Shown here: positions 29,431-52,516 of the stretch, piece after piece
Layout: the number at the start of each line of letters is the position of its first letter
How positions within the stretch are numbered: position 1 is the first letter of the stretch
Assembly: GCA_040905465.1 (NCBI GenBank)
Contig: JBBDRK010000049.1
Span: 128,001-192,000 of the forward strand
From: Trueperaceae bacterium
GTDB taxonomy: Bacteria > Deinococcota > Deinococci > Deinococcales > Trueperaceae
Direction: 5' to 3'
DNA length: 64,000 nt
Program-made: the position numbers and the translations under genes
Notes under the pieces: generated by a model
Databases searched by the model: none
The model's input: the letters and a program-made list of their open reading frames with translations, nothing else
What the model was told of the DNA's origin: nothing

Positions 29431-30408
29431 ATGAAAGTTCTGTTTTCAGGCTTGGCAACGGCGCTCGTGCTACTTGCCGGAACCGCTGCCGCCCAGGACG
29501 ACCGTTTGGTCAATGTGGGCATGGAGGCGGTCGGGACGTTCTCCTGGATCAACTTCGCTATGGAGCACTACGGCATCGATGAGGAGCTCGGCTTCGACAT
29601 CGAAACCACCAGTTATGCGACGAAACAGGCCAAGCAGTTGGCGCTGCAGTCCGGAGAGTCCGACCTGGTTGTCGACGACATCACCGGCGTTGCGCTATGG
29701 CACGAACAGGGGCTCGACGTGAAGGGCGTCTACCCATACAGCCTCGCTACCGGCGGGGTGGTGGTAAGGGCCGACAGCGACATCCATAGTATTGCCGACC
29801 TTCGCGGGCGCACCATCGCCGCCACAGACCTCGGCGACAAGAGCCTGCTGATCCTGCGCTCGCTGGCGGTCGGAGAGCACGGCTTCGACCCACAGGAAGA
29901 CGGCGAAGTCGTGGCCGCCGCGCCACCGCTGATGTCGGAGTTGCTGGCGCGCGGCGAAATCGACGCCGCCATTCCGCCCTGGCACTTCGTCGCCCGAATG
30001 GTCGGCACCGGCGATTTCCGCGAGATCGTCTCGGCAGTGGACATGCTCGGCGAGCTCGGAGCTTCGCAAGACATGCCGATCCTTATGGTCGCCGCGCGCA
30101 CCGACATGGACCCGGCGCTGCTCAGCGACTACCTTCAGGCGATGAACATGACCATCGAACGCATGCGAGGCGACGACGAGATCTTCGAACTGATCCTCGA
30201 GGAGGAGCTTTACAGCCTGCCCGATCGGTCGGTGTTCCCACAGGTGATCGAACGCTGGGAGGCGGGGATTCCGCAACGCTGGGACCAGGACGTGATTGAC
30301 GGTATCGTCGAGCTCATCGACGACATGGTCGACCTGGCGGGAACCGAGGTCGTGGGCGTTCAGGGTGGCGACGCTGACGCGTTCACGGCGGAGTTCAATC
30401 CGGAGTAA
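29431..30408 (+). CDS. NitT/TauT-type ABC substrate-binding protein, PqqT-like (candidate PQQ-binding)
   Basis: Signal peptide; GTFSW..., PYS..GG.VV..DS.I.SIADL.G, DKSLLIL, APPLM.E.L..GEIDA...WHFVAR match my recollection of the PqqT-type SBPs encoded next to PQQ dehydrogenases. Confidence 0.8.
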   Translation: MKVLFSGLATALVLLAGTAAAQDDRLVNVGMEAVGTFSWINFAMEHYGIDEELGFDIETTSYATKQAKQLALQSGESDLVVDDITGVALWHEQGLDVKGVYPYSLATGGVVVRADSDIHSIADLRGRTIAATDLGDKSLLILRSLAVGEHGFDPQEDGEVVAAAPPLMSELLARGEIDAAIPPWHFVARMVGTGDFREIVSAVDMLGELGASQDMPILMVAARTDMDPALLSDYLQAMNMTIERMRGDDEIFELILEEELYSLPDRSVFPQVIERWEAGIPQRWDQDVIDGIVELIDDMVDLAGTEVVGVQGGDADAFTAEFNPE

Positions 30409-30520
30409 CCGTCGTGGCAAGAGAGGGACCGGGACTGGCTGAACCGGGCATGAGCACATGATGGCGCTCTGGCAGCGAACGCGCCGGGACAGTTCATCGT
30501 TTCTACAACCTGAACGATTT

Positions 30521-30552
30521 TCGCGGGACCTCCTGGCCACGAGGTCCCGCGA
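30521..30552. other. Perfect 12-bp stem-loop between the SBP and permease genes (mRNA stability or attenuation)
   Basis: TCGCGGGACCTC-ctggccac-GAGGTCCCGCGA. No following U-tract. Confidence 0.55.
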
Positions 30553-30640
30553 GTCGGCTACGCGAGACACACGCGCTTCTCTCCTGACGCCTCCGCCGGA
30601 TGCGGCCATCGCACGGATTGCGTGATAGCTTTTTAGCGAG

Positions 30641-31507
30641 GTGCCCCGAAGCGAGGTTGGGTTGAGACAGGCAAGCCGGAGCGAGCAGCGGAGCGGGGGC
30701 GAGAACTCGAACCGAGCCGGTAAACGGCCGAAGATCGACCCGCTGACATTGGAGAACTGGCTCTATCGGCCGGCGTCGTTGCTCTCCATCGTCCTGGTCT
30801 GGCTGGTGCTCGCGCGGATACTGGGCGAACAGATACTGCCCGGTCCCGTGAGTACATTCGAGTTCCTGTGGAGTCAATTGGAGCGCGGCGCGTTGACGCG
30901 CCACATAGGCATCACCATGTACCGGGTACTCGTGGCATTCAGCGTCGCCATGGTGCTCGGCGTCGTCCTCGGCATGCTGATGGGTTTATCGCGCGTCGTG
31001 GACCGGCTGATGGAGGCATGGCTGATCGTCGGCCTCACGGTTCCCAGGATAATGCTCTTCGTGGTCGCCTATCTCATGCTCGGCCTCAACGACACCTCCG
31101 CGATCGTCGCACTGGTGTTCACCGTCATTCCCACGATCATCGTGCAGTTGCGCGAGGGCACCCGTGCCGTCGACCAGAAACTGGTGGAGATGGCGCGAGC
31201 CTACCGCCGATCGGACTTCACGATCTGGCGCCAGGTAATCTTCCCCCAACTGCTGCCTTACTTCATCGGAACGGCGCGCGGCGCCTTGTCGCTGGCCTGG
31301 AAGATGGTCATCCTCGCCGAACTGCTGGGGCGAACCAGCGGAGTCGGCTACCAGATCACCTTCTACTTCCAGATGTTCAACATGCGGGGGATCCTTGCCT
31401 ACGGGGTTGCCATGATGCTGGTGCTGGCCGTTATCGACCTGACGTTTGTCGGCCTTACCCAGCGCTTCGGCTTCCGCTGGCGGCGCTCCGGAAGGTACAC
31501 CGGTTAG
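30641..31507 (+). CDS. NitT/TauT-type ABC permease
   Basis: ILPGP, HIGITMYRV, EGTRAVDQKLVEMARAY, AWKMVILAELLG...GVG. Start uncertain. Confidence 0.9.
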   Translation: MPRSEVGLRQASRSEQRSGGENSNRAGKRPKIDPLTLENWLYRPASLLSIVLVWLVLARILGEQILPGPVSTFEFLWSQLERGALTRHIGITMYRVLVAFSVAMVLGVVLGMLMGLSRVVDRLMEAWLIVGLTVPRIMLFVVAYLMLGLNDTSAIVALVFTVIPTIIVQLREGTRAVDQKLVEMARAYRRSDFTIWRQVIFPQLLPYFIGTARGALSLAWKMVILAELLGRTSGVGYQITFYFQMFNMRGILAYGVAMMLVLAVIDLTFVGLTQRFGFRWRRSGRYTG

Positions 31508-31514
31508 TCGCGCG

Positions 31515-32294
31515 ATGGCCGGGATCCTGGTTTCAGGCGTAAGCAAGAGTTACATTCTGCCCGACGGCAGCGAGCGGCAGGCTCTCGACGAGATCGACCT
31601 GAAGATCGACGACGGCGAGTTCGTATGCCTGCTCGGACCCTCGGGCTGCGGCAAGACGACACTGCTGAACATCCTCAGCGGTCTCGACCGCGACTACCGG
31701 GGGAGCGTGGAGTTCACCGGTACCGGGGAGCCGGTATTCAGCTATATGTTCCAGGAGTCTCGGCTGTTGCCCTGGCTCACCGTTCGGGAGAACCTGCGCT
31801 TCGTTCTGGACCAGGAACAGCGAGGACAGCCGGGCCGGACCATGATCGACGACTGGCTCGAGCGGGTCGGCCTGGCAGCCTCCGGCGGAGACTACCCGTC
31901 ACAACTGTCCGTGGGAATGCAGCAGCGCGTGGCGCTGGTCCGGGCGTTGATAGTGGGACCGGAAGCGCTGTACATGGACGAGCCGCTCAGCTCCCTCGAT
32001 GAGCTCACCGCCTCGCAGATGAGGGATGAGTTGCTGGCGCTGTGGCAGGAGCAGTGCCCGACAGTCGTGTTCGTGACCCACAATCCGTTGGAGGCCGTCT
32101 ACCTGGCCGACCGCGTGCTGATAATGAGTCCACGACCCGGGCGCATCATCCGAGAGCTGCGGGTGAGCCAGGAGCTTCCGCGTCCGCGGAGTGCCGAGGA
32201 TGACCGGCTATGGAAACTCTCTCGGCAGTGTGTGCGGATCCTCCGGGGAGAGACGAGCGGGCACCCCGAAGCTGAGTACGAGGTAGGCGGCTGA
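31515..32294 (+). CDS. NitT/TauT-type ABC ATP-binding protein
   Basis: [47 protein letters not shown]. Confidence 0.92.
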   Translation: MAGILVSGVSKSYILPDGSERQALDEIDLKIDDGEFVCLLGPSGCGKTTLLNILSGLDRDYRGSVEFTGTGEPVFSYMFQESRLLPWLTVRENLRFVLDQEQRGQPGRTMIDDWLERVGLAASGGDYPSQLSVGMQQRVALVRALIVGPEALYMDEPLSSLDELTASQMRDELLALWQEQCPTVVFVTHNPLEAVYLADRVLIMSPRPGRIIRELRVSQELPRPRSAEDDRLWKLSRQCVRILRGETSGHPEAEYEVGG

Positions 32295-32448
32295 GCGCGC
32301 CGTCCGGTAGCCGGTACAACCCCGGGAGCACGCACGGTGACGGCACAAGAGCCTTCGGCTCGCGAGCCTAAGCGGTCGGCGATACTTTCTATACCTGAGG
32401 ACCGGTGCTACCATCTCCCCAAAATGAATCGACGAGAGGGGGAGACGC

Positions 32449-33417
32449 ATGCGAAGGTTCTACGTCCTTTTGTTCGTAGCAGTCGGCATGGGTATGTTGC
32501 TGGCCGCCGCGCAGGAGACCGACACCCCGAGCATCGAGGCGGCCGAACACGACCAGCTCGGCAAGTATCTTACCGATTCCGAGGGGCGCGCTCTATATCT
32601 GTTCCGGAACGACGAAAGAGGCGGGCCGAGCACCTGTTACGACGGTTGTGCCGAGAACTGGCCGCCGGTCGTGTTCGAGGGTTCTTTGAGGGCGGGCGAG
32701 GGCGTCGCCGAATCGCTACTGGGCACCGTGGAGCGTGACGACGGTTCGTTGCAGGCTACGTATTACGGCTGGCCGCTCTACTACTTCGCTCGAGACGAAG
32801 CTCCTGGCGATACCAACGGCCAGGGAGCAGGCGACGTATGGTTCCTCGTTTCCCCCTACGGTGAGGCGGTAGAGCCGCGCGACGAGGCGACAGCCGCCGG
32901 TGACGAGGGTGGCAAGCCAGCCGCGGCGGAAGGCGTCGACACCGAGGACGTCACCCAGGACGAAGGCGCGGAGCGCGACGAGGCTGCAGCCGAGCCGGAC
33001 GACGAGGGCGGCAAGCCCGCCGCGGCCAAGGGCGTCGACACCGAGGACGTCACCCAGGACGAAGCGGGCGAGAAGGCGGAGCCCACGGAAGAGGAGGGCG
33101 ACGGGGCAGATGGGGCCGAGACAGAGGAGATACCGAGCGACGTGATGGCCCAGGGTCAAAGCGTCTATCGCGCTAATTGCGCCACCTGCCATGGAGCGGA
33201 AGGTGGCGGCGGCTCGGGGCCCGCCCTGGCGGGCAATTCGCGCCTGGGGAACGAAAGTCGCGTGCTCAACCAGATTCTGAATGGTGGTTCGTTCATGCCG
33301 CCGTTCGGTGGTCAACTCTCCGATGAGGAGGTTGCGGCCGTCGCCACTCACATCCGAAATTCGTGGGGCAACGACTTCGGCCTCACGACTGCCGAGGAGG
33401 TGAGCGAGGCGCGCTAG
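32449..33417 (+). CDS. Secreted COG4315 (Lipoprotein_15 repeat) domain + acidic linker + class I cytochrome c
   Basis: Signal peptide; LTDSEGRALY...CYDGCAENWPP...RDDGSLQATYYGWPLYYF..D..PGD..GQG; CATCH heme motif with MPPF axial Met and IRNSWGN. Confidence 0.88.
   Translation: MRRFYVLLFVAVGMGMLLAAAQETDTPSIEAAEHDQLGKYLTDSEGRALYLFRNDERGGPSTCYDGCAENWPPVVFEGSLRAGEGVAESLLGTVERDDGSLQATYYGWPLYYFARDEAPGDTNGQGAGDVWFLVSPYGEAVEPRDEATAAGDEGGKPAAAEGVDTEDVTQDEGAERDEAAAEPDDEGGKPAAAKGVDTEDVTQDEAGEKAEPTEEEGDGADGAETEEIPSDVMAQGQSVYRANCATCHGAEGGGGSGPALAGNSRLGNESRVLNQILNGGSFMPPFGGQLSDEEVAAVATHIRNSWGNDFGLTTAEEVSEAR
32902..33065 (+). repeat. Direct repeat (99-bp period) encoding DEGGKPAAAxGVDTEDVTQDE twice in the linker
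   Basis: gacgagggtggcaagccagccgcggcggaaggcgtcgacaccgaggacgtcacccaggacgaag versus the near-identical copy from 33001. Confidence 0.85.
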
Positions 33418-33497
33418 GCAGACCAGTGCGTGAATACATCCTCGCAGTGTGACGAATAACCGTACCGATTTCCCTCTCGACGAAAGGAGCAACGAAC

Positions 33498-35192
33498 ATG
33501 GTTCGAACTACTTCGAAAATCAGCCTACGAGGCCTTTTGGCGGCGCTCGTGTGTCTGGCGCTGGCGGCACCGCTGGCCCTGGCGCAGACGGCGGATGAGC
33601 TGCTTGACCCGGATCCGGCCGACTGGCCCACCTACGGCCGCACACTCGACATGGCTCGCTTCAGTCCGCTCGACGAGATCAATCGCGACAACGTAGACAA
33701 CCTGAGGTTGGCCTGGAGCCGTGGGCTTCAGTTCGTAATCGACGCGCAGTTCTCTCCCGTCGTCTACGACGGCGTCATGTATATAAACGCTCCGGATCAG
33801 GTTCAGGCGCTCGACGCGGCCACCGGAGAACTGCTGTGGGATTACGAAGCCGAGCTTCACGAGAACACCCACTTCCTCACCAGCAGCCGCAGCCGCGGCA
33901 GCGTCGTCGTCTTCGACGGAATGGTCTTTCATGCCTTGGGTGACGGTCGGCTCGTCGCGCTCGACGCGCAGAGCGGCGAGGAGTTGTGGAGCACGCCGGT
34001 CGGCCAGATCGAGGTCGGCGAGGGCTTCTCCTCCGGCCCGATATTCGCGGACGGCAAGATCATAGTCGGGCCCTCCGGCGCCGACGCGGGAGGTGCTCCC
34101 GGGCGCGTGCTGGCGCTGGACTCGGAGAACGGCGAGATTCTCTGGACGTTCAACACCGTGCCGCGTCCGGGCGAGCCAGGCTTCGAAACGTGGGACCCGC
34201 CGTCCGCGGCGGAATGGGGCGGCGGCTCCTCCTGGGTCCCCGGCGTCTACGATCCGGAAACTCGGACGGTCATCTACGGAGTCGGGCAGCCGATCCCGTG
34301 GTGGGCCGGCGAGCAGCGCCAAGGCGACAACCTCTACACCTCCAGCTACGTCGCCATGGACGTCGACACCGGTGAGCTCAAGTGGTACCACCAGGTCATA
34401 CCTCAGGACGAGTGGGACTACGACCTCATCAATACGCCGATCATCGCCGACCTGGAGATAGACGGCGAGACCAGGCGTTCAGCCATCATCGCTACCGTCA
34501 CCGGTTTCGTCATCGTTCTCGACGCCGACACCGGCGAGTTCCTGGCCCATCACCAGATGCATCCGGACAACACGGTGCACCTCGGGTACGAGGACGACGG
34601 CACGCCGATCATCGATGACGACATGCGCTGGGCCGCGGACGAGGCGGGCGAATCCCGGACGGTCTGCCCGCTGCGCTGGGTGGACTTCGAGCCGGCGGCG
34701 TTCAACGCCGACACCGGGGTCTACTTCCGCCCGAATACCCACGAGTGCTATGAGATGACCAACGCTCCTCAGCCGGACGACTGGGTCCCCGGCGAGGATC
34801 CGAACAACGCCCAACTCGAGGTCCTGCCCGACTCGTTCGACCGCCTGGGCGGCCTCACGGCGATGGACCCCGTCTCCGGCGACGTGCTGTGGGAGTGGAC
34901 CTTCGGTTACTCTCAGCGTAGCGGCGTCGTCGCTACTGCCGGCGACCTGGTCTTCATGGGCTCGCCCGATCGCGGTTTCCGTGCGTTCGATGCCGAAACG
35001 GGCGACGTACTCTGGCAACAGCGGTTGACCGCCTACATCCAGGCAAACCCGATCACCTACTCGGTAGATGGCAAGCAGTACGTGGCCATTCCGGTAGGCG
35101 GGGAGGGCCCGCTGGTCATTGCGCGCCAGAGCGACCAGCCGCCGATCGTTACCTCCGACGTGTCGATCTTCGTGTTCGCGCTGCCCGACTAG
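33498..35192 (+). CDS. PQQ-dependent dehydrogenase (8-blade propeller), divergent, unknown substrate
   Basis: Signal peptide; DWPTYG...RFSPL.EIN..NV..L.LAW, ALDA.TGE.LW repeats, GGGSSW, DNLYTSS, YHQVIPQDEWDYD, P.TY..DGKQYVA, FVFALP. Confidence 0.9.
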   Translation: MVRTTSKISLRGLLAALVCLALAAPLALAQTADELLDPDPADWPTYGRTLDMARFSPLDEINRDNVDNLRLAWSRGLQFVIDAQFSPVVYDGVMYINAPDQVQALDAATGELLWDYEAELHENTHFLTSSRSRGSVVVFDGMVFHALGDGRLVALDAQSGEELWSTPVGQIEVGEGFSSGPIFADGKIIVGPSGADAGGAPGRVLALDSENGEILWTFNTVPRPGEPGFETWDPPSAAEWGGGSSWVPGVYDPETRTVIYGVGQPIPWWAGEQRQGDNLYTSSYVAMDVDTGELKWYHQVIPQDEWDYDLINTPIIADLEIDGETRRSAIIATVTGFVIVLDADTGEFLAHHQMHPDNTVHLGYEDDGTPIIDDDMRWAADEAGESRTVCPLRWVDFEPAAFNADTGVYFRPNTHECYEMTNAPQPDDWVPGEDPNNAQLEVLPDSFDRLGGLTAMDPVSGDVLWEWTFGYSQRSGVVATAGDLVFMGSPDRGFRAFDAETGDVLWQQRLTAYIQANPITYSVDGKQYVAIPVGGEGPLVIARQSDQPPIVTSDVSIFVFALPD

Positions 35193-35239
35193 GAGGTCGC
35201 TCGGAGGGACATCCGGGCAATCTTCCTGACAGAAACTGG

Positions 35240-35274
35240 AGAGGTGGGATGTCGGTGGCATCCCACCTCTTCTC
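35240..35274 (+). terminator. Strong hairpin after PQQ dehydrogenase 1
   Basis: AGAGGTGGGATGTC-ggt-GGCATCCCACCTCT followed by TCTC. Confidence 0.65.
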
Positions 35275-35323
35275 GCATACTTGGGCCCCCTGCGCTCGAT
35301 CGTAGGAATGGCGGTGCCAGCAA

Positions 35324-37387
35324 ATGAACTCCCTGCGCCGAAGAGGCGGACCTATCGAGATCCCGACACTGCTCGTGGCTCTTCTGTCGGTACTGCTCAT
35401 GAATCCTCACGCTCATGGGCAGAACGGCTGGGAGATGCGTGTCTGCGCCGATCCCGCCGCCTACCCCTTCTCCAGTCGCGAAAGTGCCGGGATCGACAAC
35501 CGGATTGCCCAGATCCTGGCGGACGAACTGTCGGCGGAGCTGAGCTACGTGTGGACGCCGATCAACCTTGGCGCGGTGAGGCAACACCTGCATCCTGGCG
35601 ACTGCGATCTGCTCATGGGAGTGGCCGAAGGCGCCGAGGGCGTGCTGAACACGATTCCCTACTACCAGGCTCCCTTCGTGTTCGTTTACCGGCAAGATTC
35701 CGGCCTCGAGCTGCGGTCGCTGGAAGACGAAAACCTGCGGGAGCTGCGGATAGCTGTGAACCCCAACGGCCTGGCTCAGTTCGCGCTTAGCGAGTTGGGC
35801 CTGGGGGGAAGCGCGGTTACCGTGCGCCCAAACCGCGCCGTACGTGGCGCCGAGCGGATAACGCCTCTCATCGATCGTGTACTGGAGGGGGAGGTAGACG
35901 CGGCGATCGTCTACGGTCCGGAAGCCGCCCCCTTCGTCCGGGAGCACCCGGCCGAGCTGCAGATCGAGCCGGTGACGCCACAGATCGTGCCACCCCTGAT
36001 CCAGATGTTCCGGATCGTGACCATGGGAGTGCGCCCCGGTGACGAGGCGTTCCGGGACCGTCTCAACATCGCACTCGGAAAGCGCTGGGAGGAGATCCAG
36101 GCGGTCTTCGAGGAGTTCGGCGTGCCCCTGACCCAGTTGCCGGCGCCGTTCGTGGCGGAACAGGTTCAGGAAAACCTGATCCGGATCGGGGCCGTCCTGC
36201 CTGTCACGGCGGGCCAGCCGGGGATCAGCGACCCGCTCGGAAACGCTGCCCGATTGGGTGCTCTGATTGCGGAAGACACGATAGCGAGAGGAGCGGCGGC
36301 GAGCGAAGCCGGCGCAGCCAACAGCGCTCCCAAGGTACTGATCGCCAGCAGCCCCAGTGCCGCGGCGGCCGAGAGAGCGGCCGAGCGGATGATAGCAACC
36401 GAGGACGTCGTCGCTATTATCGGTGGATTGGGAAGCGAGCAGGCCTTCGCTTTGAACGGGGTGGCTGCCGAGCGCGACGTGCTGTTCTTCAACCTAGGCG
36501 CCATCGACGCCGAGTTGCGCGGGGCGGAGTGCAGCCGCAACACCTTCCACATCGAGGCGAGCGCGGCCATGTATCTCGACGCGCTGGCCGAGTGGTTCAG
36601 CCAGGCCGGTCATGCTCGCTGGTTGGTCGTATACGAAGGATCGGAGGAGGGCCGCGAGCTCCTGGAGCAAGCTCTACTGGCGGTGGACGGAGTCGACTCC
36701 GAGGTGGTGGGCGAGATCGAGCTGCCGCCGGGACCCGCCGCCTACCAGGAAGGTTTCAGCGCTATCGAGGAGGAGCAAGCCGACCTCGTGTTGCTGTTGC
36801 TGGCTCCGCGCGATCAGGAACTCTTCCTCTCCCAGTACGGTGTCCAGGGGCCGGACGTCACCGTGACCGGCATGCCGTTCCCGGTGATGCAGACCCGCGA
36901 TTACCTCGGGCGACTCCAGCAGTCCGCACCGCCTGGCGCACGTTTCCGGGCAGCACTATGGGATACCACGCTGGCGGACCACGGAGCGGAGGAGCTGAAC
37001 GAGCGCTTCGTCTCTCGCTCGGGAGAGCCGATGGATCCCTCCGGTTGGGCAGCTTACGCCGCGATCCGGATCATCCACCATGCCGCGAACGAGGCGTCGG
37101 GAACGGAGACCGGGCAACTGGTCGACTACCTGGAGAGCCCCGCTGCCGAGTTCAACCTGCACAAGGGACCTGGGACTACCTTTCGTCCACACAACCACCA
37201 ACTGCGGCAACCGCTGTATATGATCGAGTTGGACCCGGATGCGCCGTGGGGACGCGAAGTGTCGAGCCGAATTGCGTTGGCGGATCTCGCCGGGCAGCTT
37301 CCGCGAGAGCCCGACGGCGATGCTTACCTCGAGCGGCTCGACCGGCTGGGCGAAAGCGGGGAGCAGGATTCCTGCGACTTCCAATAG
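35324..37387 (+). CDS. Fusion: XoxJ/MxaJ-like binding domain + PQQ-ADH-system (LutA/PedA1-like) binding domain
   Basis: N-half MRVCADP..YPFS...GIDNRIA.ILA.EL, CDLLMGV, T.PYY, DAAIVYGP.A, MGVRPGD. C-half type I PBP ending GWAAYAAI...HKGPGTTFRPHNHQLRQPLY. Confidence 0.8.
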   Translation: MNSLRRRGGPIEIPTLLVALLSVLLMNPHAHGQNGWEMRVCADPAAYPFSSRESAGIDNRIAQILADELSAELSYVWTPINLGAVRQHLHPGDCDLLMGVAEGAEGVLNTIPYYQAPFVFVYRQDSGLELRSLEDENLRELRIAVNPNGLAQFALSELGLGGSAVTVRPNRAVRGAERITPLIDRVLEGEVDAAIVYGPEAAPFVREHPAELQIEPVTPQIVPPLIQMFRIVTMGVRPGDEAFRDRLNIALGKRWEEIQAVFEEFGVPLTQLPAPFVAEQVQENLIRIGAVLPVTAGQPGISDPLGNAARLGALIAEDTIARGAAASEAGAANSAPKVLIASSPSAAAAERAAERMIATEDVVAIIGGLGSEQAFALNGVAAERDVLFFNLGAIDAELRGAECSRNTFHIEASAAMYLDALAEWFSQAGHARWLVVYEGSEEGRELLEQALLAVDGVDSEVVGEIELPPGPAAYQEGFSAIEEEQADLVLLLLAPRDQELFLSQYGVQGPDVTVTGMPFPVMQTRDYLGRLQQSAPPGARFRAALWDTTLADHGAEELNERFVSRSGEPMDPSGWAAYAAIRIIHHAANEASGTETGQLVDYLESPAAEFNLHKGPGTTFRPHNHQLRQPLYMIELDPDAPWGREVSSRIALADLAGQLPREPDGDAYLERLDRLGESGEQDSCDFQ

Positions 37388-37436
37388 GGTCCGGCCCCCG
37401 CAGCACCCGGTTCAGGAACAGGATGATTGACCCAGG

Positions 37437-38972: not shown

Positions 38973-38992
38973 GCCGGGCGCTCGTTTACGGG

Positions 38993-40044
<1,052 letters not shown>

Positions 40045-40048
<4 letters not shown>

Positions 40049-40923
40049 GCCTCCTTCCGCCGAGAGTGCTGCAGAAGCTCGCTCGCTCGCGCCTCCAGCC
40101 GATATGGGCGACCCCGCGGGCCGGCGTGGGCGAAAGACGCTCGAGGGCCAAGGGTTCCGGAATCGAGTTTGCGGACCACCGTGAATACCAGCCGGGGGAC
40201 GACATCAGGCACCTCGATCGCCACGCCTACTCGCGACTGGGACGGCACGTCATCAAGCAGTATTCGCTCTATCAGCAGCTTCAGGTAACCGTTTTGATCG
40301 ACAGCAGCGCCTCGATGGGGTTCGGGACACCGGCGAAACTCCGGCGGGCAGCCGAGCTCGCGGGCATCGTCGCGTACGCGGGACTGAGCGGCGGCGACCG
40401 AGTGCTGGTGGGGGCTTTCTCCGGCGGCAGCGTCAAGTGGCATCGACACCTGGAAGGTACCCGCCGAGCAGCTGCGCTCTTCCGTTGGCTGGAGCAGCTG
40501 CGACCGGAGGGCTCGTCGCGCGTCGCCGAGTCGGCTCGGGCCAGCGCCCGTCGCCTCGGCAGCTCCGGCCTGCTGGTGGTGATCAGCGACTGGCTGGACG
40601 ACGGATTGGCGGCGGCTCTCTCGGCGTGGCGGCGAGCCGGCCAGGAGCTGGTAGGGGTGAGGCTGCTGGCGCCTGAGGAGCTCGAACCCGAGCGCATGGG
40701 CGACGGCCCGGTCCGGCTGTTCGACGTCGAGTCCGGCCAGGAGGTAGAGGCGTCGCTGGACGCCGGCGGCTACGCGAGCTACCGGAAGGCGCTGGCCGAC
40801 TGGGAGCGACGGCTGCGCGACGCGCTCTTCGTGCAGGAGGGGCGGCTGTTCTCGGTTCGCAGCGACGATGATCTGGAACGCACCGTCCTGACCGAGTGGC
40901 GGGTGAAGCAGCTGATTTCATGA
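40045..40923 (+). CDS. DUF58 family protein (MxaS-like VWA partner)
   Basis: GSGIEFADHREYQPGDDIRHLD, LIDSSASM, VVISDW. Confidence 0.92.
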
Positions 40924-45275: not shown

Positions 45276-45500
45276 CGGCAGTTTCGCCCCCGGCAGCCGG
45301 CTCACCTGAGAGGCACCAAGTGTGGAGGGTGCGGCACCGCTGTGCCCTGACCTCTCCGCTGCGCCGCCGCCCGAGCCACCGCCCGAGCGGAATTGTGTAC
45401 CGAAATGGAGGCTCGGGCCCGTTCCTTCGCCGCAGCAGGCGGTGCTACGATAAATCCACGGGGGCAACCATGCCCACATTTTGATCAATAGGAGTTTCGC

Positions 45501-46256
45501 ATGCGATTCGTTTTGTCGTCATCTGCCTTCCTGGTCCTGTCCCTGGCGCTCGTCGGCGCCCAGGAGGCCGGCGAAGCAACGGTGCAGGTTGCCGAAAGCG
45601 AGAGTTGGGGCAGCCACCTGACCAACGCCGAGGGTGCCAGCCTCTACCTCTACCTGGAAGACGAAGGCCTCGAGGGCGAGAGTGCCTGCGCCGAGAGTTG
45701 CACCAGGAACTGGCCGCCGCTGACGGTGGACGGCGAGCCCGTCGCCGGTGAAGGCGTGGACGCTGAACTGCTCGGCACCCTCACCCGTGACGACGGCTCG
45801 AGCCAGGTGACCTACGGCGGCTGGCCCCTCTACACTTACGCCCGTGATACCGAGCCGGGCCACACCAAGGGCCAGGGCCTGGGCCGGGTGTTCTTCCTGG
45901 TGTCGCCGGCGGGCGAGCAGGTAACCGAGGAGCTGGTCCAGGAAGCTCCCGAGCTGGATGAGGAAGTGATGGCCCAGTTGATGACCGAGGGCGAGCGCGC
46001 GTTCCGCAACAACTGCGTCGTATGCCATGGAGCTCAGGGCCAGGGCGCCATAGGGCCTCGCCTGGCAGGCAACTCGAACGTGGGCGGTACCGCGTTCCTG
46101 GTCCAGAGGATCATCATCGGCTTCGAGGCACACGGGATGCCACCGTTCGGACACCTCTCGGACGAGCAGATCGCAGCCATATCCACTTTCGTCCGCAACT
46201 CGTGGGGAAATGAGTTCGGTGCCGTCACTTCTGAGGAGGTGAGTAACCTGCGATAA
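45501..46256 (+). CDS. Secreted COG4315 domain + class I cytochrome c (paralog of 32449-33417)
   Basis: LTNAEGASLYLY...CAESCTRNWPP...RDDGSSQVTYGGWPLY; CVVCH, GMPPF, VRNSWGN. AGGAG RBS. Confidence 0.88.
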   Translation: MRFVLSSSAFLVLSLALVGAQEAGEATVQVAESESWGSHLTNAEGASLYLYLEDEGLEGESACAESCTRNWPPLTVDGEPVAGEGVDAELLGTLTRDDGSSQVTYGGWPLYTYARDTEPGHTKGQGLGRVFFLVSPAGEQVTEELVQEAPELDEEVMAQLMTEGERAFRNNCVVCHGAQGQGAIGPRLAGNSNVGGTAFLVQRIIIGFEAHGMPPFGHLSDEQIAAISTFVRNSWGNEFGAVTSEEVSNLR

Positions 46257-46346
46257 GCAACGGACGAACCGGTGTATCCCAAGTCCTCTCCCCCTACGAA
46301 CTTATTCCGCAACGTCTCCTACTCGAAAGGTTTGGTGGCTGTTCAC

Positions 46347-48155
46347 ATGACACACCCAACAACATTCGGAGCCGGCTGGCTCAACAGGCTCGCCCTCGCG
46401 TTCACGGCGGCGGTACTACTGACCGTCGGCGCCGGAGCGGCACTGGCGAACGAAGAGGTGCTCAACCTCCAGGACGATCACTCGATGTGGGTGATGCCCA
46501 ACCAGAACTACGCCGGCTGGAACTACAGCGAACTGGACCGCATCAACCGCCACAACGTTGACAACCTGCGCGTCGCCTGGGCGTTCCAGACGGGCGTGCT
46601 GGACTCGCACGAAGCGCAGCCGTTGGTCATAGGCTCTACGATGTACGTCCTGACTCCCAAGCCGAACACGCTATATGCCCTCGATCTCACACGGCAAGGC
46701 TTCATCAAGTGGTCGTTCGCTCCCGAGATGGATACGGAGCGAGCCGGCTCACTGGCCTGCTGTGGCGCCCAGACCCGCGGCATGATGTACGCCGAAGGCA
46801 AGATTCTCTTCAACACACTCGACGGACAGCTTTTCGCCGTAAACGCCAACGACGGCTCGGTGGCATGGGACACGCAGGTTGCCGATCTCGATCTCGGTGA
46901 GACGACCACGACCAACCCGTTGGTCGTCGGCGACAACGTCATCATCGGCAACGAAGGCGGCGAGCGCGGGGTTCGCGGCTGGGTGGCGGCATACGACCTC
47001 AACAGTGGCGAGCAGCAGTGGAAGTTCTACAGCACCGGACCCAACGAAGATATGGGGATCGGTGAGCGCTTCAACCCGTTCTACGCCGACGACCAGGTCG
47101 AGGAGCCGGGCGTACAGAGCTGGTACGAGGATTCCTGGGAGCACGGTGGCGGCACCAACTGGGGCTACTGGACCTACGACCAGGACACCAACCTCTTCTT
47201 CTATGGCACCAGCAACTGCGCCCCCTGGAACCCGGACTACCGCCGCGACCCGGCCACCGCGCCCGGATTCGACGAGTACGGCAACAAGTACTGCGCCTCG
47301 CTTCTCGCCCGCGACGCAACCAGCGGCGAGCTGGTGTGGGCGTACTCGGTCACGCCGCAGGATCAGTGGGACTTCGACGAGCCCGGCCAGAACTTCCTGG
47401 TGGATCTCGAGATGGACGGTGAGATGCGCAAGACGCTCGTCAAGCCCGCCCGCAACGGTTTCTTCTACGTGTTCGACCGCGAGACCGGCGAGATCCTCAA
47501 CGAGCCGTTCACCTACACCAGCGTCAACTGGGCCTCTAGCATCGACCTCGACACCGGCCGGCCCGTCTTCAATGAGGAAACGATCGCCTACACGGACGTC
47601 GAGATCCCGATCTGCCCCTTCATCGCCGGCAACAACTGGTTCAACGACGCCTACTCGCCGCGCACCGGCTTGGTTTACTTCGCTGCTGAGAACCGCTGCT
47701 CTTCACTCACGCCGATCGAGGGCGAATTCACCGCCGGCGAGAACTACATCCTCATGAAATTCGGCCAGAGTCACGCGGGACCAGGCGGATACCTCGGCGA
47801 ACTTCAGGCATGGGATCCGGTAACCGGCGAGAAGGCCTGGGGTATCAAGACCCAGACCTCGCGCAACGCCTTCCCGGTGCTCGCCACCGCCGGCGACCTG
47901 ATCTTCCAGGGGACCGACAAGGGTGAACTGAGGGCCGTTGACGCCCGCAACGGACAGGTTCTGTGGTCGTTCCGTACCGGCAGCAACTTCCGCAACTCGC
48001 CGATCAGCTATGTCGGGCCCGACGGCAAGCAGTACCTCGCGGTCATCTCCAGCCAGGCGCCACGAGATCCGGAGATCGGTGAAGACACCGAGCCGGAGGC
48101 GGAGGGTCGCTACCGACGCGCAGGCTCGACGCTCTACGTGTTCAGTCTGCCTTGA
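46347..48155 (+). CDS. xoxF: PQQ-dependent methanol/ethanol-family dehydrogenase, XoxF-like (lanthanide-type D-x-D)
   Basis: MDH-like N-terminus (NEEVLNL..D...WVMP..NYA..NYSEL..IN..NV), vicinal CC (46758-46763), GGERGVRG (Glu ligand), YGTSN (Asn ligand), PQDQWDFDE (47367-47378), GSTLYVFSLP. Symbol tentative because the sequence is divergent. Confidence 0.85.
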   Translation: MTHPTTFGAGWLNRLALAFTAAVLLTVGAGAALANEEVLNLQDDHSMWVMPNQNYAGWNYSELDRINRHNVDNLRVAWAFQTGVLDSHEAQPLVIGSTMYVLTPKPNTLYALDLTRQGFIKWSFAPEMDTERAGSLACCGAQTRGMMYAEGKILFNTLDGQLFAVNANDGSVAWDTQVADLDLGETTTTNPLVVGDNVIIGNEGGERGVRGWVAAYDLNSGEQQWKFYSTGPNEDMGIGERFNPFYADDQVEEPGVQSWYEDSWEHGGGTNWGYWTYDQDTNLFFYGTSNCAPWNPDYRRDPATAPGFDEYGNKYCASLLARDATSGELVWAYSVTPQDQWDFDEPGQNFLVDLEMDGEMRKTLVKPARNGFFYVFDRETGEILNEPFTYTSVNWASSIDLDTGRPVFNEETIAYTDVEIPICPFIAGNNWFNDAYSPRTGLVYFAAENRCSSLTPIEGEFTAGENYILMKFGQSHAGPGGYLGELQAWDPVTGEKAWGIKTQTSRNAFPVLATAGDLIFQGTDKGELRAVDARNGQVLWSFRTGSNFRNSPISYVGPDGKQYLAVISSQAPRDPEIGEDTEPEAEGRYRRAGSTLYVFSLP

Positions 48156-48200
48156 TCGAACTTTTGCCGTTTCCCGCTGAATAGGAAAGCCAGCCAAAGG

Positions 48201-48240
48201 CGGGGGGAGAGCGGTCATTCGCTCTCCCCCCGTTTTCTTC
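48201..48240 (+). terminator. Intrinsic terminator after the XoxF-like gene
   Basis: CGGGGGGAGAGCG-gtcatt-CGCTCTCCCCCCG followed by TTTTCTTC. Confidence 0.85.
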
Positions 48241-48340
48241 TCACCGCCACTATGGACAGGACCGAACGGAACCGGTCCGGCGGCCGCCCAGCTGATGACG
48301 TCGCCGCCAGTGCGGGCTACGACGGAAAGGAACGTCAATC

Positions 48341-50398
48341 ATGACCAGGGGGATGAGGCGAGGCCTCGCTCGAGCCCTACCCACAATCGCCTGCGCGCTG
48401 GCGCTGAGCTTGTCTTTCGCGGGCCTTGCAGCCGACGGCGACTGGGAGATGCGCGTCTGCGCTGACCCCGACGGCATGCCGTTCTCGAATCGAGACCTTG
48501 AAGGTTACGAGAACCGTATCGCCGCCGTCCTGGCCGAGGAGCTCGGCGCCACGCTCACATATGACTGGTTCACCCAGGGGCCCGACATGGTCAACTTTCA
48601 CCTGCGGGAGGGCCAGTGCGACCTGATCATCGGTGTTCCCGACGGATACGAGGACCTGCTCACAACCGTCGCCTATTACCGCAGCCCCTACGTCTTCCTC
48701 TACCCCACCGACTCGGAGCACAAGGTGACGTCGCTGGACGACCCGGCTTTGGCGGAGATGCGCATCGGCGTGCAGGCGGTAGGAATACCGCCTCATCAGG
48801 GCCTGATCAACCGCGGACTGGGCCACACCGTGGTCCGCCGCTTCGCCGGGCCCGGCCTCACCAACGCGGCCGCCTCCTTCGAACAGGTAGTCGACGCCCT
48901 TGCCAACGAAGAGATCGACGTGGGTATCGCCTGGGGACCGGTGGCGGGCTACGTGGCCGAGCGCTCCGACGTCGACCTGGAAATCACGCCGGTTACGCCC
49001 GAGTTCGAGCCCCCCTTCCTGACAATGGTGTTCGCCATGGCGATCGGAATGCGACCCGGCGATGAGTCTTTTCGCGATCGCCTGGACGTGGCCCTGGTGA
49101 ATCGCTGGCAGGAGATTCAGGCGATCCTCGGTGACTACGGCGTTCCGACCGCTCCCCTTCCGACGCCTACTCTCCCCGCCGATGAACCAAGCGGAACCGT
49201 CGTTCGAGTAGGGGTCGTTATCCCCGGAACAACGGGGCACAGCAGGATTCGCGCCTCGATCAACGACCTGGTGGGCGACGCTGCCCGCATGGGCGCCCTG
49301 ATGGCTGAGAGCGACATAGCCAACCTCGAAGCCGTCGAAAACACTTTGAAGGTGCTGCCCGCCAGTTCACCGAGCGCCGAGGCCGCCTTCCGGGCTGCCG
49401 AGAGACTGGTGGCAACCGAGGAGGTGACTGCGATTGTCGGGGGCCTGGGCGATGGTCAGGCCGAGAGGCTCTCCGAAGCGTTGGCGGCTGGGGAGGTCCT
49501 GTTCTTTAATATCGGCTCCCCGTCGATGGCGTTGCGCGAGCTCTGCAATCCCGCCACCTTTCACATCGAGCCTAGCGCGGCAATGTACCTCGATGCCCTG
49601 GCCGAGTGGTATTCGGAACGAGGGATGGAAAGCTGGTTCGTAGTCCACGAGGACAACCCCGCGGGAGAGGCGCTGCGTGAGCGTGCCGTTCGGGCGATAG
49701 AGAGTCACGGCGGCGGAGAGCTGGCCGGAACCGCCGCAACGACCATCGAACAACCGGTCTACTCGGCCGAGATCAGCGAACTCGAAGTCTCCGGTGCGGA
49801 CGTGGTGCTGTTGCTTCTGGGTCCGGCCGATCAGATAGCCTTCGTATCGCAACAACAGTCGTTCGCCAGCGGCGCTATCGTCGCGATGTACCCGCATCCG
49901 ATCACCCAGACGCGCGATTTTATCGCGGCAACCAGCGACGCGGCCAGGGACGGAGGGGCCGACCAGCGAATGATGTCTTGGGAGACCACTCTCGAGGAAG
50001 GCGCGATGGGTGTGCTCAACGAGCGCTATACCTCGCGCTGGGGTCAGCCGATGGACACGCCTGCCTGGAGCAGCTACCAGGCTATCCGCATCGTCGATCA
50101 GGCCGTTCGCGACTCCGATAGCGACGATTCGGCAGCACTCGTCGCGTACCTCGAATCTCCGGATACGTCGTTCGAGGCGAAAGGGCTCGAGCTGTCGTTC
50201 CGGCCATGGGACCACCAGCTGGGTCAACCGCTGTACGTGGTCGACGTGAATCCCGACGCTCAGTGGGGAACTAACCTCTCGCAGATGGTGGCGTTCGCCG
50301 AATTGGCGGGAACGGTGCCGAGCGAGCTGGGGGATGGGGCACGGGAACGTCTGCTGGCGTTGGGCGACGACGAGGAAGCGTTGGCTTGCCGACGATGA
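48341..50398 (+). CDS. Fusion: XoxJ/MxaJ-like + LutA/PedA1-like binding domains (paralog of 35324-37387)
   Basis: MRVCADPDGMPFSN...GYENRIA, CDLIIGVP, T.AYYRSPYVF, DVGIAWGPVAGY, MAIGMRPGD. C-half ends AKGLELSFRPWDHQLGQPLY. Confidence 0.82.
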   Translation: MTRGMRRGLARALPTIACALALSLSFAGLAADGDWEMRVCADPDGMPFSNRDLEGYENRIAAVLAEELGATLTYDWFTQGPDMVNFHLREGQCDLIIGVPDGYEDLLTTVAYYRSPYVFLYPTDSEHKVTSLDDPALAEMRIGVQAVGIPPHQGLINRGLGHTVVRRFAGPGLTNAAASFEQVVDALANEEIDVGIAWGPVAGYVAERSDVDLEITPVTPEFEPPFLTMVFAMAIGMRPGDESFRDRLDVALVNRWQEIQAILGDYGVPTAPLPTPTLPADEPSGTVVRVGVVIPGTTGHSRIRASINDLVGDAARMGALMAESDIANLEAVENTLKVLPASSPSAEAAFRAAERLVATEEVTAIVGGLGDGQAERLSEALAAGEVLFFNIGSPSMALRELCNPATFHIEPSAAMYLDALAEWYSERGMESWFVVHEDNPAGEALRERAVRAIESHGGGELAGTAATTIEQPVYSAEISELEVSGADVVLLLLGPADQIAFVSQQQSFASGAIVAMYPHPITQTRDFIAATSDAARDGGADQRMMSWETTLEEGAMGVLNERYTSRWGQPMDTPAWSSYQAIRIVDQAVRDSDSDDSAALVAYLESPDTSFEAKGLELSFRPWDHQLGQPLYVVDVNPDAQWGTNLSQMVAFAELAGTVPSELGDGARERLLALGDDEEALACRR

Positions 50399-50537
50399 TG
50401 GCCCGCGTCGCGCGGATCGCTGAGGGCCACCGCACTTTTCCCGGGGTCACGGTTACATGAGGTGATCGGGCTTACCGTGAATCGATGACCGGTCCGCCGG
50501 GCCGGTGATTCGATCGACGCGAACAGGGGGAGCAGAA

Positions 50538-51599
50538 ATGGCGTATTGGAGAATTTTACTGGCCGTAATCACGCTTCTGTGGGCGGCGCCGGCATTGGCG
50601 CAAGGTAGCGCAGACGGCGGCGACGACAACGGAAGCGCAGCGGGCGAAAGCGCCGCTGGGCAAAGCGAGGACGGTGCGGCCGCCGGTGACGATGCGGTTG
50701 GCGACGATGCGGTTGGCGACGACGCTGCTGGCGATGACGCGGCCGGCGACGAAGGTGCTGTCGGTGACGACGGGGCCGAGGGCGACGATGGCGCAGCCGG
50801 CGATGACGCCGCAGTCGGTGACGATGGGGCCGAGGGTGAGGACGCCGAGGCCGCCGCCGAGGAGCCGCAGGTGCAGCGCTGGACGTTCGAAGCGTTCGAC
50901 GCCGATGGCGACAGCAGCTTGACGGTAGGGGAGTTCGGGACCGGTCTGTTCGAACTGGTGGTAGGCGACGGTGAGGGTCTCGGCCCGGACCAGTACGAGC
51001 ACGCGGCACAGGCGTTCGGGGTCGAAGCTCAGGAGGTCGACTTCGAAACCGCCGACGTGAACCAAGACGGCATAGTGACCGATGACCAGGAGTTCATTCC
51101 TGCCGTGGCGACCCGCGTGTTCGAGAACTGGGACGCGGACGGCGACAATGCTCTGAGCGCCGAAGAGTATCGCACCAACATGTTCTCTACCTTCGATGCC
51201 GACGCTGACGGCACCGTGAGCGCCGACGAGTTCGAGCCGTTTGCCGCCTGGTTCGACACCGGCTTCGAAGAGGTCGCCGGCGGGGGCGCTGGCGGCTTTA
51301 CCGAGGACTTCTTCATGGAGGACGGCTTCGGCGCGGGCGACGGCGCGGGCGACGGCGCCGATGAAGGCGCTGCCGACGACGTAGAGACGCCTGCGACTGA
51401 AGACGACGATGCGGATACAGAAGACGCAGACATGGAAGACACCGACACAGAAGACGCGGAAACAGACGACGCGGACACCGAGGGCGCCGGTGAAGATGGT
51501 GCCGGCACGGACGACACGGATGACGACACGAATGACGGCACAGAGGACGGCGACGTAGGAGGCGGCGGCGAAGCCGACGATGCCGGCAGCGACTACTGA
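50538..51599 (+). CDS. Secreted hyper-acidic multi-EF-hand protein
   Basis: Signal peptide ending ALA-Q. EF-like loops DADGDSSLTVGE, DVNQDGIVTDDQE, DADGDNALSAEE, DADADGTVSADE, flanked by GDDA(V/A) and EDADT low-complexity repeats. GGGGGAG RBS. Confidence 0.85.
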   Translation: MAYWRILLAVITLLWAAPALAQGSADGGDDNGSAAGESAAGQSEDGAAAGDDAVGDDAVGDDAAGDDAAGDEGAVGDDGAEGDDGAAGDDAAVGDDGAEGEDAEAAAEEPQVQRWTFEAFDADGDSSLTVGEFGTGLFELVVGDGEGLGPDQYEHAAQAFGVEAQEVDFETADVNQDGIVTDDQEFIPAVATRVFENWDADGDNALSAEEYRTNMFSTFDADADGTVSADEFEPFAAWFDTGFEEVAGGGAGGFTEDFFMEDGFGAGDGAGDGADEGAADDVETPATEDDDADTEDADMEDTDTEDAETDDADTEGAGEDGAGTDDTDDDTNDGTEDGDVGGGGEADDAGSDY

Positions 51600-52463: not shown

Positions 52464-52516
52464 GCCTTCATCTTGGCACGAGTGGGCGAATCGGGGACCG
52501 AGCCGGCCACCTGGGC

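Follow-up and report, generated by a model that had tools for sequence, protein, structure and literature searches.

The 64,000-nucleotide window analysed here (contig JBBDRK010000049.1, positions 128,001 to 192,000, of a Trueperaceae bacterium) carries, at 29431-51599, an island of 14 genes around two pyrroloquinoline quinone (PQQ) dehydrogenases (Table 1). All 14 genes lie on the plus strand, as an earlier note on this DNA had claimed and as the listing of open reading frames and the Pfam and NCBIfam scans bore out. The order cytochrome, PQQ dehydrogenase, hairpin, two-domain binding protein is present twice, also as claimed (32449-37387 and 45501-50398, called modules A and B below). Domain scans confirmed that the two modules flank a MoxR-DUF58-VWA set, with an ATP-binding cassette (ABC) importer in front and an EF-hand protein behind.

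Table 1. Genes and hairpins of the quinoprotein island, in window coordinates
Feature	Position	Strand	Matches and motifs
ABC importer binding protein, PqqT-like, candidate PQQ-binding	29431-30408	+	Pfam NMT1/Phosphonate-bd; NMT1/SsuA-type
ABC permease, BPD_transp_1, SsuC/SaoP-like	30641-31507	+	family scans
ABC ATPase	31446-32294	+	family scans
Secreted PF03640 (x2) and monohaem cytochrome c, module A	32449-33417	+	CATCH haem motif; CxxxC...NWPP motif
PQQ dehydrogenase A, divergent clade	33498-35192	+	W-D-Y-D; no vicinal Cys-Cys; Asp/Gln metal-site changes; Val for PQQ-contacting Arg
Hairpin after dehydrogenase A gene	35238-35272	+	perfect 16-bp stem, weak T tract
Fused binding protein A, XoxJ/MxaJ-like N and LivK-type (Peripla_BP_6) C domain	35324-37387	+	TIGR03871 194.5 bits, below 212.15
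Membrane-anchored, largely disordered 511-aa protein, no family	37437-38972	+	Pfam and NCBIfam blank; conserved upstream of MoxR in related loci
MoxR-type AAA+ ATPase (MxaR-like)	38993-40048	+	AAA_3 6.7e-58
DUF58 protein (MxaS-like)	40045-40923	+	DUF58 3.1e-26
1459-aa membrane protein, BatA_N and VWA (residues about 993-1160)	40896-45275	+	VWA_2 1.3e-23
Secreted PF03640 (x2) and monohaem cytochrome c, module B	45501-46256	+	CxxCH; PF03640 hits
PQQ dehydrogenase B, XoxF-like	46272-48155	+	Cys-Cys, Glu, Asn, Asp, Asp all present; W-D-F-D
Hairpin after dehydrogenase B gene	48197-48242 (15-bp stem 48200-48233)	+	15-18-bp, then TTTTCTTCT; terminator-like
Fused binding protein B, XoxJ/MxaJ-like N and LivK-type C domain	48341-50398	+	TIGR03871 227.7 bits, above 212.15
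Secreted, very acidic 364-aa EF-hand protein	50505-51599	+	loops at residues 132-143, 184-195, 210-221, 231-242; signal peptide

The two PQQ dehydrogenases

Dehydrogenase B scored 518.9 bits with TIGR03075, the model of the methanol/ethanol-family PQQ dehydrogenases (curated cut-off 480.05). Its best solved match is 4MAE, the lanthanide enzyme of Methylacidiphilum fumariolicum SolV (E 1e-126), and in this alignment Glu172, Asn256, Asp299, Asp301 and the Cys-Cys pair of 4MAE are all matched. The next four PDB matches include the XoxF structures 7O6Z, 6DAM and 6OC5, with the Ca-type MxaF 4TQO fourth. The Cys-Cys pair, Glu231, Asn315, Asp367, Asp369 and the PQQ-contacting Arg394 of dehydrogenase B are invariant in all 23 relatives compared from related loci. 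By its sequence, dehydrogenase B is a canonical XoxF relative with every lanthanide ligand; the true start of the protein is probably an internal Met 24 codons downstream. The alcohol oxidation proposed in the earlier note has support by homology, the lanthanide-type Asp being present in both island enzymes.

The XoxF-XoxG-XoxJ systems of strain SolV and Methylorubrum extorquens AM1 share with the island the full XoxF ligand set and Cys-Cys pair, as well as a XoxJ homologue and a c-type cytochrome encoded beside the dehydrogenase. Unlike these systems, the island has the order cytochrome-dehydrogenase-chaperone, its XoxJ-like part is fused to a LivK-type domain and its cytochrome is a c6/c551/CcoP-like domain fused to PF03640 rather than cytochrome cL; neither PQQ synthesis nor a formaldehyde pathway was found in the host genome.

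The closest solved relatives of dehydrogenase A include 22VI, 4MH1 (sorbose dehydrogenase), 4CVB, 7WMD and 9M2C (E 2e-81 to 2e-70), which are PQQ dehydrogenases without a Cys-Cys pair. In the top match, 22VI, the pair is missing at the aligned position in the one alignment shown, as it is in dehydrogenase A. A metagenome search returned 118 full-length homologues, and the 110 of these that are at least 42% identical to dehydrogenase A are called clade A here; the named members come from metagenome-assembled genomes (MAGs) of Trueperaceae and from Calidithermus terrae. Vicinal Cys-Cys is absent from the clade, and the lanthanide-position Asp, two residues after the catalytic Asp, is kept in 110/110. 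The position of the metal-binding Glu is held by Asp in 110/110, an equivalence that we infer from the alignments only, because a one-residue indel lies beside it. The metal-binding Asn is replaced by Gln in 87 members and kept in 23, and the catalytic Asp is kept in 98 and missing from 12. At the position of the PQQ-contacting Arg stand Thr, Val, Ser or Pro (Thr or Val in 106 of the 110); neither Arg nor Lys occurs there in any member. All 118 aligned homologues retain the stacking Trp, and 110 of the 118 the equivalent of Arg109. The eight more distant homologues, acidobacterial sequences included, have canonical residues at most of these positions. Unlike clade A with its invariant extra Asp and its Asp/Gln signature, 22VI has, in the alignment shown, no Asp two residues after the catalytic one. 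As judged from these alignments, dehydrogenase A belongs to an undescribed clade in which the lanthanide Asp is retained and the site around it remodelled, and because of the altered residues the binding of cofactor or metal may differ. Clade A would then be a natural variant of the metal site.

A third module was found on contig C74 of the host genome (L049:7567-14383, minus strand), consisting of a 606-aa trihaem cytochrome c and a 993-aa PQQ dehydrogenase. The N half of this dehydrogenase is an SGL/gluconolactonase-like propeller, and the enzyme has W-D-W-D, Glu and Asn and no Cys-Cys pair. The two halves of the island binding protein are encoded behind it as genes of their own, one XoxJ-like (274 aa) and one LivK-like (428 aa). 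The three eight-bladed enzymes that tblastn found in the host genome all carry W-D-x-D and are therefore of lanthanide type by the Asp criterion.

Cytochromes, binding proteins and hairpins of the modules

The cytochrome domain encoded upstream of each dehydrogenase is of class I, c6/c551/CcoP-like (Cytochrome_CBB3-like); two PF03640 repeats, in which a Cys pair is conserved, stand in front of it. The same fusion occurs in 102 of the 120 best relatives, and in two of the 120 a cupredoxin takes the place of the cytochrome. No function of PF03640 (COG4315) was found in the literature, in solved structures or in the Atlas, and the literature searched held nothing on PF03640 in a lanthanide or PQQ context. 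The AlphaFold2 model of the protein is confident (pLDDT 90.3); a Foldseek search with it matched PDB entries through the cytochrome domain only, an Atlas search returned only other PF03640 clusters, and the fold gave no functional lead. In module A, a 99-bp tandem repeat in about two copies (32877-33107, 80-88% matches) encodes the acidic linker, itself duplicated, that joins the PF03640 part of the protein to the cytochrome domain; the module B protein has no such linker.

When dehydrogenase B was modelled with the PF03640 domain alone, the interface score ipSAE was 0.41, against 0.00 for the best control, with 100% contact agreement between three runs and a partner pLDDT of at least 88. Of 80 solved complexes, 58 reach the calibration mark of this score, as do 2 of 110 mismatched pairs; passes at or below 0.60 comprise only 7 of the 80 solved complexes, plus both of the mismatches that passed. 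We take the predicted docking of the PF03640 domain on dehydrogenase B as a weak lead.

The N half of binding protein B matches the XoxJ structure 6ONP (E 5.5e-40) and the MxaJ structure 9ISM_B (E 2.4e-24). MxaJ is the chaperone that lets PQQ into MxaF, according to passages of PMC12276312, and those of PMC12997753 describe PedA1 as the binding protein of the Pseudomonas lanthanide importer and PedG as a XoxJ-like protein of the same cluster. By homology, the two binding proteins are XoxJ/MxaJ-like cofactor chaperones fused to a LivK-type domain that is distantly related to PedA1. The earlier note had seen the known functions rebuilt from different, fused parts; this does not hold for the N half of the binding protein, which is a true XoxJ/MxaJ homologue. 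Full-length fusions make up about 50 of the 150 best representative clusters. The XoxJ-like and LivK-like parts are encoded by adjacent separate genes behind the third dehydrogenase of the host genome, in Thermaceae and in Alphaproteobacteria, and since they are fused in some lineages and adjacent in others, the two parts can be argued to act on one process.

A hairpin was present in each of the 20 gaps examined between a dehydrogenase and a binding-protein gene; its position recurs and its sequence does not. The two island hairpins have fold z-scores of -2.65 to -4.02, and in 10 of the 20 regions no random control reached the fold of the hairpin. The feature is real, and by this fold-control measure it stands only moderately beyond background.

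Conservation of the unit and its proposed supply of PQQ and metal

When species genomes were scanned, relatives of the fused binding protein turned up at 22 loci, in Deinococcota and in Alphaproteobacteria of the Hyphomicrobiales type. In 19 of them the gene immediately before that of the binding protein encodes a dehydrogenase, and contig ends truncate the other three; this gene order is not due to chance. A full-length PF03640-cytochrome fusion precedes the dehydrogenase in six of these loci, shorter PF03640 matches lie nearby in five alphaproteobacterial ones, and 12 further loci show the triad again. The importer stands beside the triad in L038, L040 and L043, the last of which, from Thermaceae, carries both module types in tandem. 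The synteny survey that the earlier note had asked for was thus favourable to the conservation of the gene set, the triad recurring in two Deinococcota families and, in split form, in Alphaproteobacteria. A protein of the XoxJ/LivK type was found in 44 of 364 Deinococcota species genomes, with 37 carriers among 127 other genomes of the host family, 6 among 68 of the Calidithermus family and none among 125 of a third family. One carrier is in culture: Calidithermus chliarophilus DSM 9957 has a B-type triad and a PqqT-like importer, and no pqqC was found in it.

The placement of the contig in Deinococcota is supported by RpoB, which makes the host Trueperaceae-like. The host protein is 85% and 84% identical to those of two MAGs labelled Trueperaceae, one of which belongs to the same coded family as the window, 83% to that of one labelled Deinococcaceae, 69% to that of C. 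chliarophilus and 58% to that of Pelagibacterium. The host genome comprises 3.53 Mb in 81 contigs and was scored 95% complete.

The module had been described as duplicated. The repeated order is real, but it did not arise by duplication here: between the modules the dehydrogenases are 29%, the binding proteins 43% and the cytochromes 39-49% identical. In a tree of 15 fused proteins, the six that lie behind A-type dehydrogenases (6/6) form one branch (support 98/99), and binding protein A of the window is closer to the copy of another genus (47%) than to the B copy of its own genome. The modules are therefore old paralogous types inherited as units. A recent duplication in this genome was rejected on the identities of 29-49% and on the conservation of separate module types across genera.

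In L038 and L040 (G294 and G295, of the window's genus), the importer genes are 76-86% identical to those of the window, the A-type dehydrogenase 49-50% and its binding protein 42%, with a long branch in the tree; a replacement or transfer of the module within the genus is possible. In L012 and L014, from MAGs of Rhizobium sp. Q54, a single binding-protein gene or a pair of them comes after three to four XoxF-like dehydrogenase genes in tandem, and a crude motif scan of L012 gave no W-D-x-D match at the expected place in two of the four dehydrogenases.

The binding protein of the importer has as its sole PDB matches at E<=0.001 the PqqT structures 9B1U, 9B1V and 9OOZ (E 1.7e-21; residues 29-310 against 7-288). 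PqqT, a periplasmic PQQ-binding protein of M. extorquens AM1 (9B1U), is therewith its only solved relative, aligned over nearly the full length. Residues of PqqT are numbered here after PMC11331073, whose numbers differ by 27 from those of the chain. The Lys142 equivalent, which in PqqT takes the metal's place at PQQ (passages of PMC11331073 and PMC12124388), is kept in a 'DK' motif. Unlike PqqT of M. extorquens, the island copy belongs to a non-producer of PQQ, and its gene is closely linked to dehydrogenase modules. The start of the ATPase gene probably lies later than listed, because the listed one gives a 62-nt overlap with the permease gene.

The claim of cofactor scavenging is supported by this homology and by the absence of pqqC, which was not found in the 95%-complete host genome. 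The same search was positive above cut-off in three alphaproteobacterial carriers, which served as a control, and found no pqqC in C. chliarophilus or in one Trueperaceae MAG. Among the 364 Deinococcota species genomes, pqqC exceeded its cut-off in 10, four of which belong to the 44 carriers of the XoxJ/LivK-type protein; the other 40 carriers are without it. A PqqT-like protein was found in 75 of the 364 genomes, namely in 40 of the 44 module carriers against 35 of the 320 non-carriers, and the four carriers lacking it are 77-91% complete. By coordinates, the PqqT-like gene lies on the same contig as the module and at most 25 kb from it in 28 of those 40. These counts show a pattern and are not a test, because related genomes are not independent. 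Genome G364, one of only four module carriers in the phylum with pqqC, has a PqqT-like gene, pqqC and a LivK-like gene within 8 kb (C313:6099-14192), the PqqT-like gene about 1.5 kb from pqqC.

The genes between the modules point to metal handling. MoxR, DUF58 and VWA are the families of MxaR, MxaS and MxaC/L, and MxaR/S/A/C/K/L are needed for Ca2+ insertion, according to passages of PMC12276312; the metal loading and maturation that the earlier note had proposed are supported by this homology. The set lies beside modules in L002, L020, L038 and L040-L042, and in L038, L040, L041 and L042 it stands behind the triad together with the 511-aa protein. This 511-aa protein found only hypothetical clusters and a weak DUF4175 lead in the Atlas. 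The island resembles the mxaFJGIRSACKLD genes of the Ca2+ methanol dehydrogenase in having the three families beside a dehydrogenase and an MxaJ-like chaperone. It differs in that there is no MxaI small subunit, one MoxR set serves two modules, and the VWA functions lie in a single 1459-aa BatA-type protein alongside the unclassified 511-aa membrane protein. Family models of MxaA and MxaK did not turn up in general scans, which were not aimed at them. We know of no test, in any organism, of a role of MoxR/DUF58/VWA-type sets with lanthanides.

Lanmodulin has four EF hands, Pro at loop position 2, Asp at position 9 and a mass of about 12 kDa. The island EF-hand protein is likewise secreted, with four loops, a spacing of 9 residues between EF3 and EF4 and a gene beside lanthanide-type dehydrogenases. 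Unlike lanmodulin, it is 364 aa long, its loops sit between repetitive D/E/G/A-rich tails, and it is confined to two genera. The loops, three canonical and one ending in Gln, read D-A-D-G-D.., D-V-N-Q-D.., D-A-D-G-D.. and D-A-D-A-D.., without Pro at position 2 and with Ser/Thr at position 9, and no lanmodulin entry was among its PDB matches at E<=1. A lanmodulin counterpart, which the earlier note had counted among the functions rebuilt in the island, was thus not borne out, and a periplasmic metal buffer is a reasonable reading of the sequence. Homologues of the EF-hand core occur in 4 of 128 family genomes (two genera), all four with a copy next to a module. In-frame tandem repeats of 12-54 bp (50682-50836 and 51329-51549) build the acidic tails, and these arrays may vary in length between strains.

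A further set of genes lies on contig C36 of the host genome (L050:3763-10993, minus strand), where PedA1A2BC-like genes enclose an OmpR-type response regulator and a histidine kinase. The propeller scored 224.6 bits with TIGR03866, the binding protein 127.8 with TIGR03863 (cut-off 413.6), the ATPase 222.3 with TIGR03864 and the permease 105.8 with TIGR03861, all four below the curated cut-offs. By homology, the set is a candidate lanthanide uptake and sensing locus. With the third module on C74, this transporter and its two-component system mean that the island is not self-contained, as the earlier note had supposed it to be. The ped cluster of Pseudomonas putida (PedH, PedF, PedG, PedA1A2BC, PedS2R2) likewise has a lanthanide-type PQQ alcohol dehydrogenase with its own cytochrome, PedG/XoxJ-like (TIGR03871) and PedA1-like LivK-type (TIGR03863) binding proteins, and a PedA2/PedB/PedC set with a two-component system as on C36. 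Unlike the ped cluster, the island has the PedG-like and PedA1-like parts in one polypeptide, all Ped-like transporter parts of the host stay below curated cut-offs and the host lacks pqqC, whereas P. putida makes its own PQQ.

Proposed mechanism and alternatives

We propose that a Trueperaceae-like bacterium unable to make PQQ has in this island its main locus for the oxidation of alcohols by quinoproteins. The activities, the metal, the ligands of the binding proteins and the roles of the hairpins in this scheme are all predictions from sequence. Two periplasmic eight-bladed lanthanide-type PQQ dehydrogenases would oxidise alcohols, and each would pass its electrons to the monohaem cytochrome c encoded just upstream and be matured by the binding protein encoded just downstream. 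The XoxJ/MxaJ-like half of the latter would hold the apo-enzyme open for PQQ insertion, after the manner of MxaJ, while the LivK-type half would deliver or sense another ligand, of which the metal is the most plausible candidate. Insertion of the metal would fall to the MoxR-DUF58-VWA set and the conserved membrane protein, in the way that MxaR/S/A/C/K/L insert Ca2+. PQQ would be scavenged from outside by the PqqT-like ABC system, and the acidic EF-hand protein would serve as a buffer or donor of metal ions in the periplasm. The hairpin between the dehydrogenase and chaperone genes would keep the enzyme transcript above that of the chaperone.

Taken as a whole, the island in our judgement probably encodes a lanthanide-type quinoprotein system that is conserved in Trueperaceae and Thermaceae and runs on salvaged PQQ; we are less confident of module A, of the ligand of the importer and of every accessory role. 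Several results weigh against it. Dehydrogenase A reaches 416 bits with TIGR03075, below the cut-off, and departs from the XoxF/PedH site at four further positions (no Cys-Cys, Asp for the metal Glu, Gln for the metal Asn, no PQQ-contacting Arg), which makes its metal and cofactor less certain. The cytochromes fail as cytochrome cL (XoxG/MxaG), with 24.5 and 20.2 bits on TIGR03872 against a cut-off of 147.8, and the LivK-type halves score 111.7 (A) and 106.3 (B) bits on TIGR03863, against 413.6 for PedA1. The PqqT match of the importer binding protein is moderate, at about 80 bits, and two of the three named side-chain contacts are lost (Asn143 to Ser, Tyr188 to Pro, the next Trp being kept). 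ABC importers deliver their substrate to the cytoplasm, whereas PQQ dehydrogenases need PQQ in the periplasm; this would require either that the PqqT-like binding protein passes PQQ on to the chaperone as well, or that PQQ serves some purpose in the cytoplasm itself. Several B-type modules (L044-L046, L048) have no MoxR set within 10 kb, the EF-hand loops are of the ordinary Ca2+ type, and segments of the same length drawn at random from these GC-rich loci match the hairpin regions in fold strength in 21 of 232 trials. In single-family searches of the 95%-complete genome, fae, hexulose-phosphate synthase and glutathione-dependent formaldehyde dehydrogenase all stayed below cut-offs; with no canonical formaldehyde pathway found, methylotrophy is unsupported and the enzymes are not called methanol dehydrogenases here. 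The sequencing runs matching the stretch are sediment and soil metagenome DNA only, the best of which may be the source of the sequence, with no RNA run among those matching the locus.

Three points would also suit quinoproteins that use Ca2+ or another metal, in which the extra Asp would not serve lanthanides and the MoxR/VWA set and EF-hand protein would handle Ca2+ as in mxa: the Ca2+-type loops, the change of two of the four metal ligands in dehydrogenase A, and the MoxR/DUF58/VWA homologues, which passages of PMC12276312 document for the insertion of Ca2+ and not of lanthanides. We hold this to be improbable, since the extra Asp is invariant in 23/23 B-type and 110/110 A-type enzymes and occurs in the genome's third dehydrogenase as well, the structures nearest to dehydrogenase B are those of lanthanide enzymes, and the genome has a set like PedA1A2BC, the lanthanide importer of P. 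putida (passages of PMC12997753). For module A alone, the sub-threshold TIGR03075 score, the lost Cys-Cys and PQQ-contacting Arg and the 12 clade members without the catalytic Asp could mean an 'empty' or repurposed propeller, a binding protein or an enzyme with another cofactor, that has kept its gene neighbourhood; the second-best family of dehydrogenase A is indeed the acido-empty-quinoprotein group A (TIGR04528, 357.1 bits). The cut-off of that model, 650 bits, is not reached either, nor is it by dehydrogenase B (310.6 bits). A cytochrome c and a XoxJ-like chaperone of its own co-segregate with dehydrogenase A across genera, the stacking Trp, the Arg109 equivalent and the D-x-D pair are conserved, and the PDB entries of solved relatives that lack Cys-Cys (4CVB, 4MH1, 7WMD) call them PQQ enzymes; an empty propeller is quite unlikely.

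An importer for another substrate, such as a sulfonate, nitrate, a thiamine precursor or an oxidation product, linked to the modules metabolically or incidentally, is unlikely on balance but has several points in its favour. The family matches are generic (SsuA_fam 53.7 bits, NMT1, SaoP/SsuC, SaoA), the score to PqqT is as low as given above with two contacts changed, cytoplasmic import would be no service to periplasmic enzymes, and 35 module-free genomes have a PqqT-like protein as well. Uptake of PQQ is favoured in that no other solved binding protein matches at E<=0.001, the Lys replacing the metal at PQQ is conserved (passages of PMC11331073), and the PqqT-like gene accompanies the module in 40 of 44 carriers, mostly at a distance of a few kb, and stands by pqqC in G364; the four f2-family genomes with pqqC also have a PqqT-like protein, as do producers in the PqqT literature. 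That the 14 genes are unrelated neighbouring operons, their repeated order a local duplication without function, is very improbable: the synteny survey contradicts it with the triad in two Deinococcota families and the split parts in Alphaproteobacteria, the MoxR set follows the triad in the six loci named above, and the paralogues, 29-49% identical, belong to separate conserved module types. It could draw only on the absence of the EF-hand gene from most related loci and on a consensus promoter/terminator scan that did not exceed chance (10 terminator-like sites against 9.1 expected) and missed both hairpins.

Beyond the lanthanide-type system with PQQ salvage, a bolder joint reading can be drawn, which we regard as rather unlikely in its entirety. 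Trueperaceae and Thermaceae would have a distinct, self-assembling lanthanide system running on scavenged PQQ, in which a XoxJ-LivK chaperone loads two cofactors, one half opening the apo-enzyme to PQQ and the other supplying the lanthanide. PF03640 would be a docking module tethering small electron carriers (cytochrome c, cupredoxin) to the dehydrogenase, and clade A a class with an Asp/Gln/Asp/Asp site and no redox disulfide, maybe tuned to other lanthanides or bulky substrates.

To our knowledge, nearly all that has been worked out on lanthanide-dependent quinoproteins comes from Proteobacteria and Verrucomicrobia. The present loci suggest that a whole family-level lineage of Deinococcota, with the 37 of 127 other host-family genomes and the 6 of 68 of a second family, has the same chemistry in a different package, made of a non-cL cytochrome with PF03640, a fusion of chaperone and PedA1-like domain, and PqqT-type uptake without PQQ synthesis. 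As 'Rosetta stone' evidence, the fusions link proteins of the XoxJ/PedG and PedA1 types to one and the same process, which bears on the systems of Pseudomonas and of methylotrophs. With the B-type triad, the PqqT-like importer and no pqqC found in the cultured C. chliarophilus DSM 9957, the predictions are open to direct testing. The earlier note knew of no lanthanide biology in this phylum, and the literature searched held nothing on xoxF or lanthanide PQQ enzymes in Deinococcota, Truepera, Meiothermus or Thermus, although surveys may list the phylum; such surveys describe lanthanide-type PQQ enzymes from many phyla, among them 14 of 33 phyla of ocean MAGs (passages of PMC11996626). The kind of system is known; new, as far as seen, are the non-cL cytochrome with PF03640, the fused chaperone, the PqqT-type importer in non-producers and the clade A site.

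The genes on either side of the island are unrelated and on the opposite strand: a carboxyltransferase gene (26932-28425) and a LamB/YcsF gene (28480-29241), pxpBC- and pxpA-like, on the left, and a metallophosphoesterase gene (51801-52592) on the right. Rfam at gathering thresholds gave no match in the whole window. An aldehyde dehydrogenase gene (20091-21602, minus strand) lies 8 kb upstream of the island, clustered with genes for pyridoxal phosphate (PLP) enzymes and a GntR regulator, and a link to the island is not established. Also upstream is a Gp49-like (DUF891) gene (24791-25309), in a region of lower G+C content (24001-26000; 0.58 against about 0.65), which may be a small toxin-antitoxin or mobile remnant.

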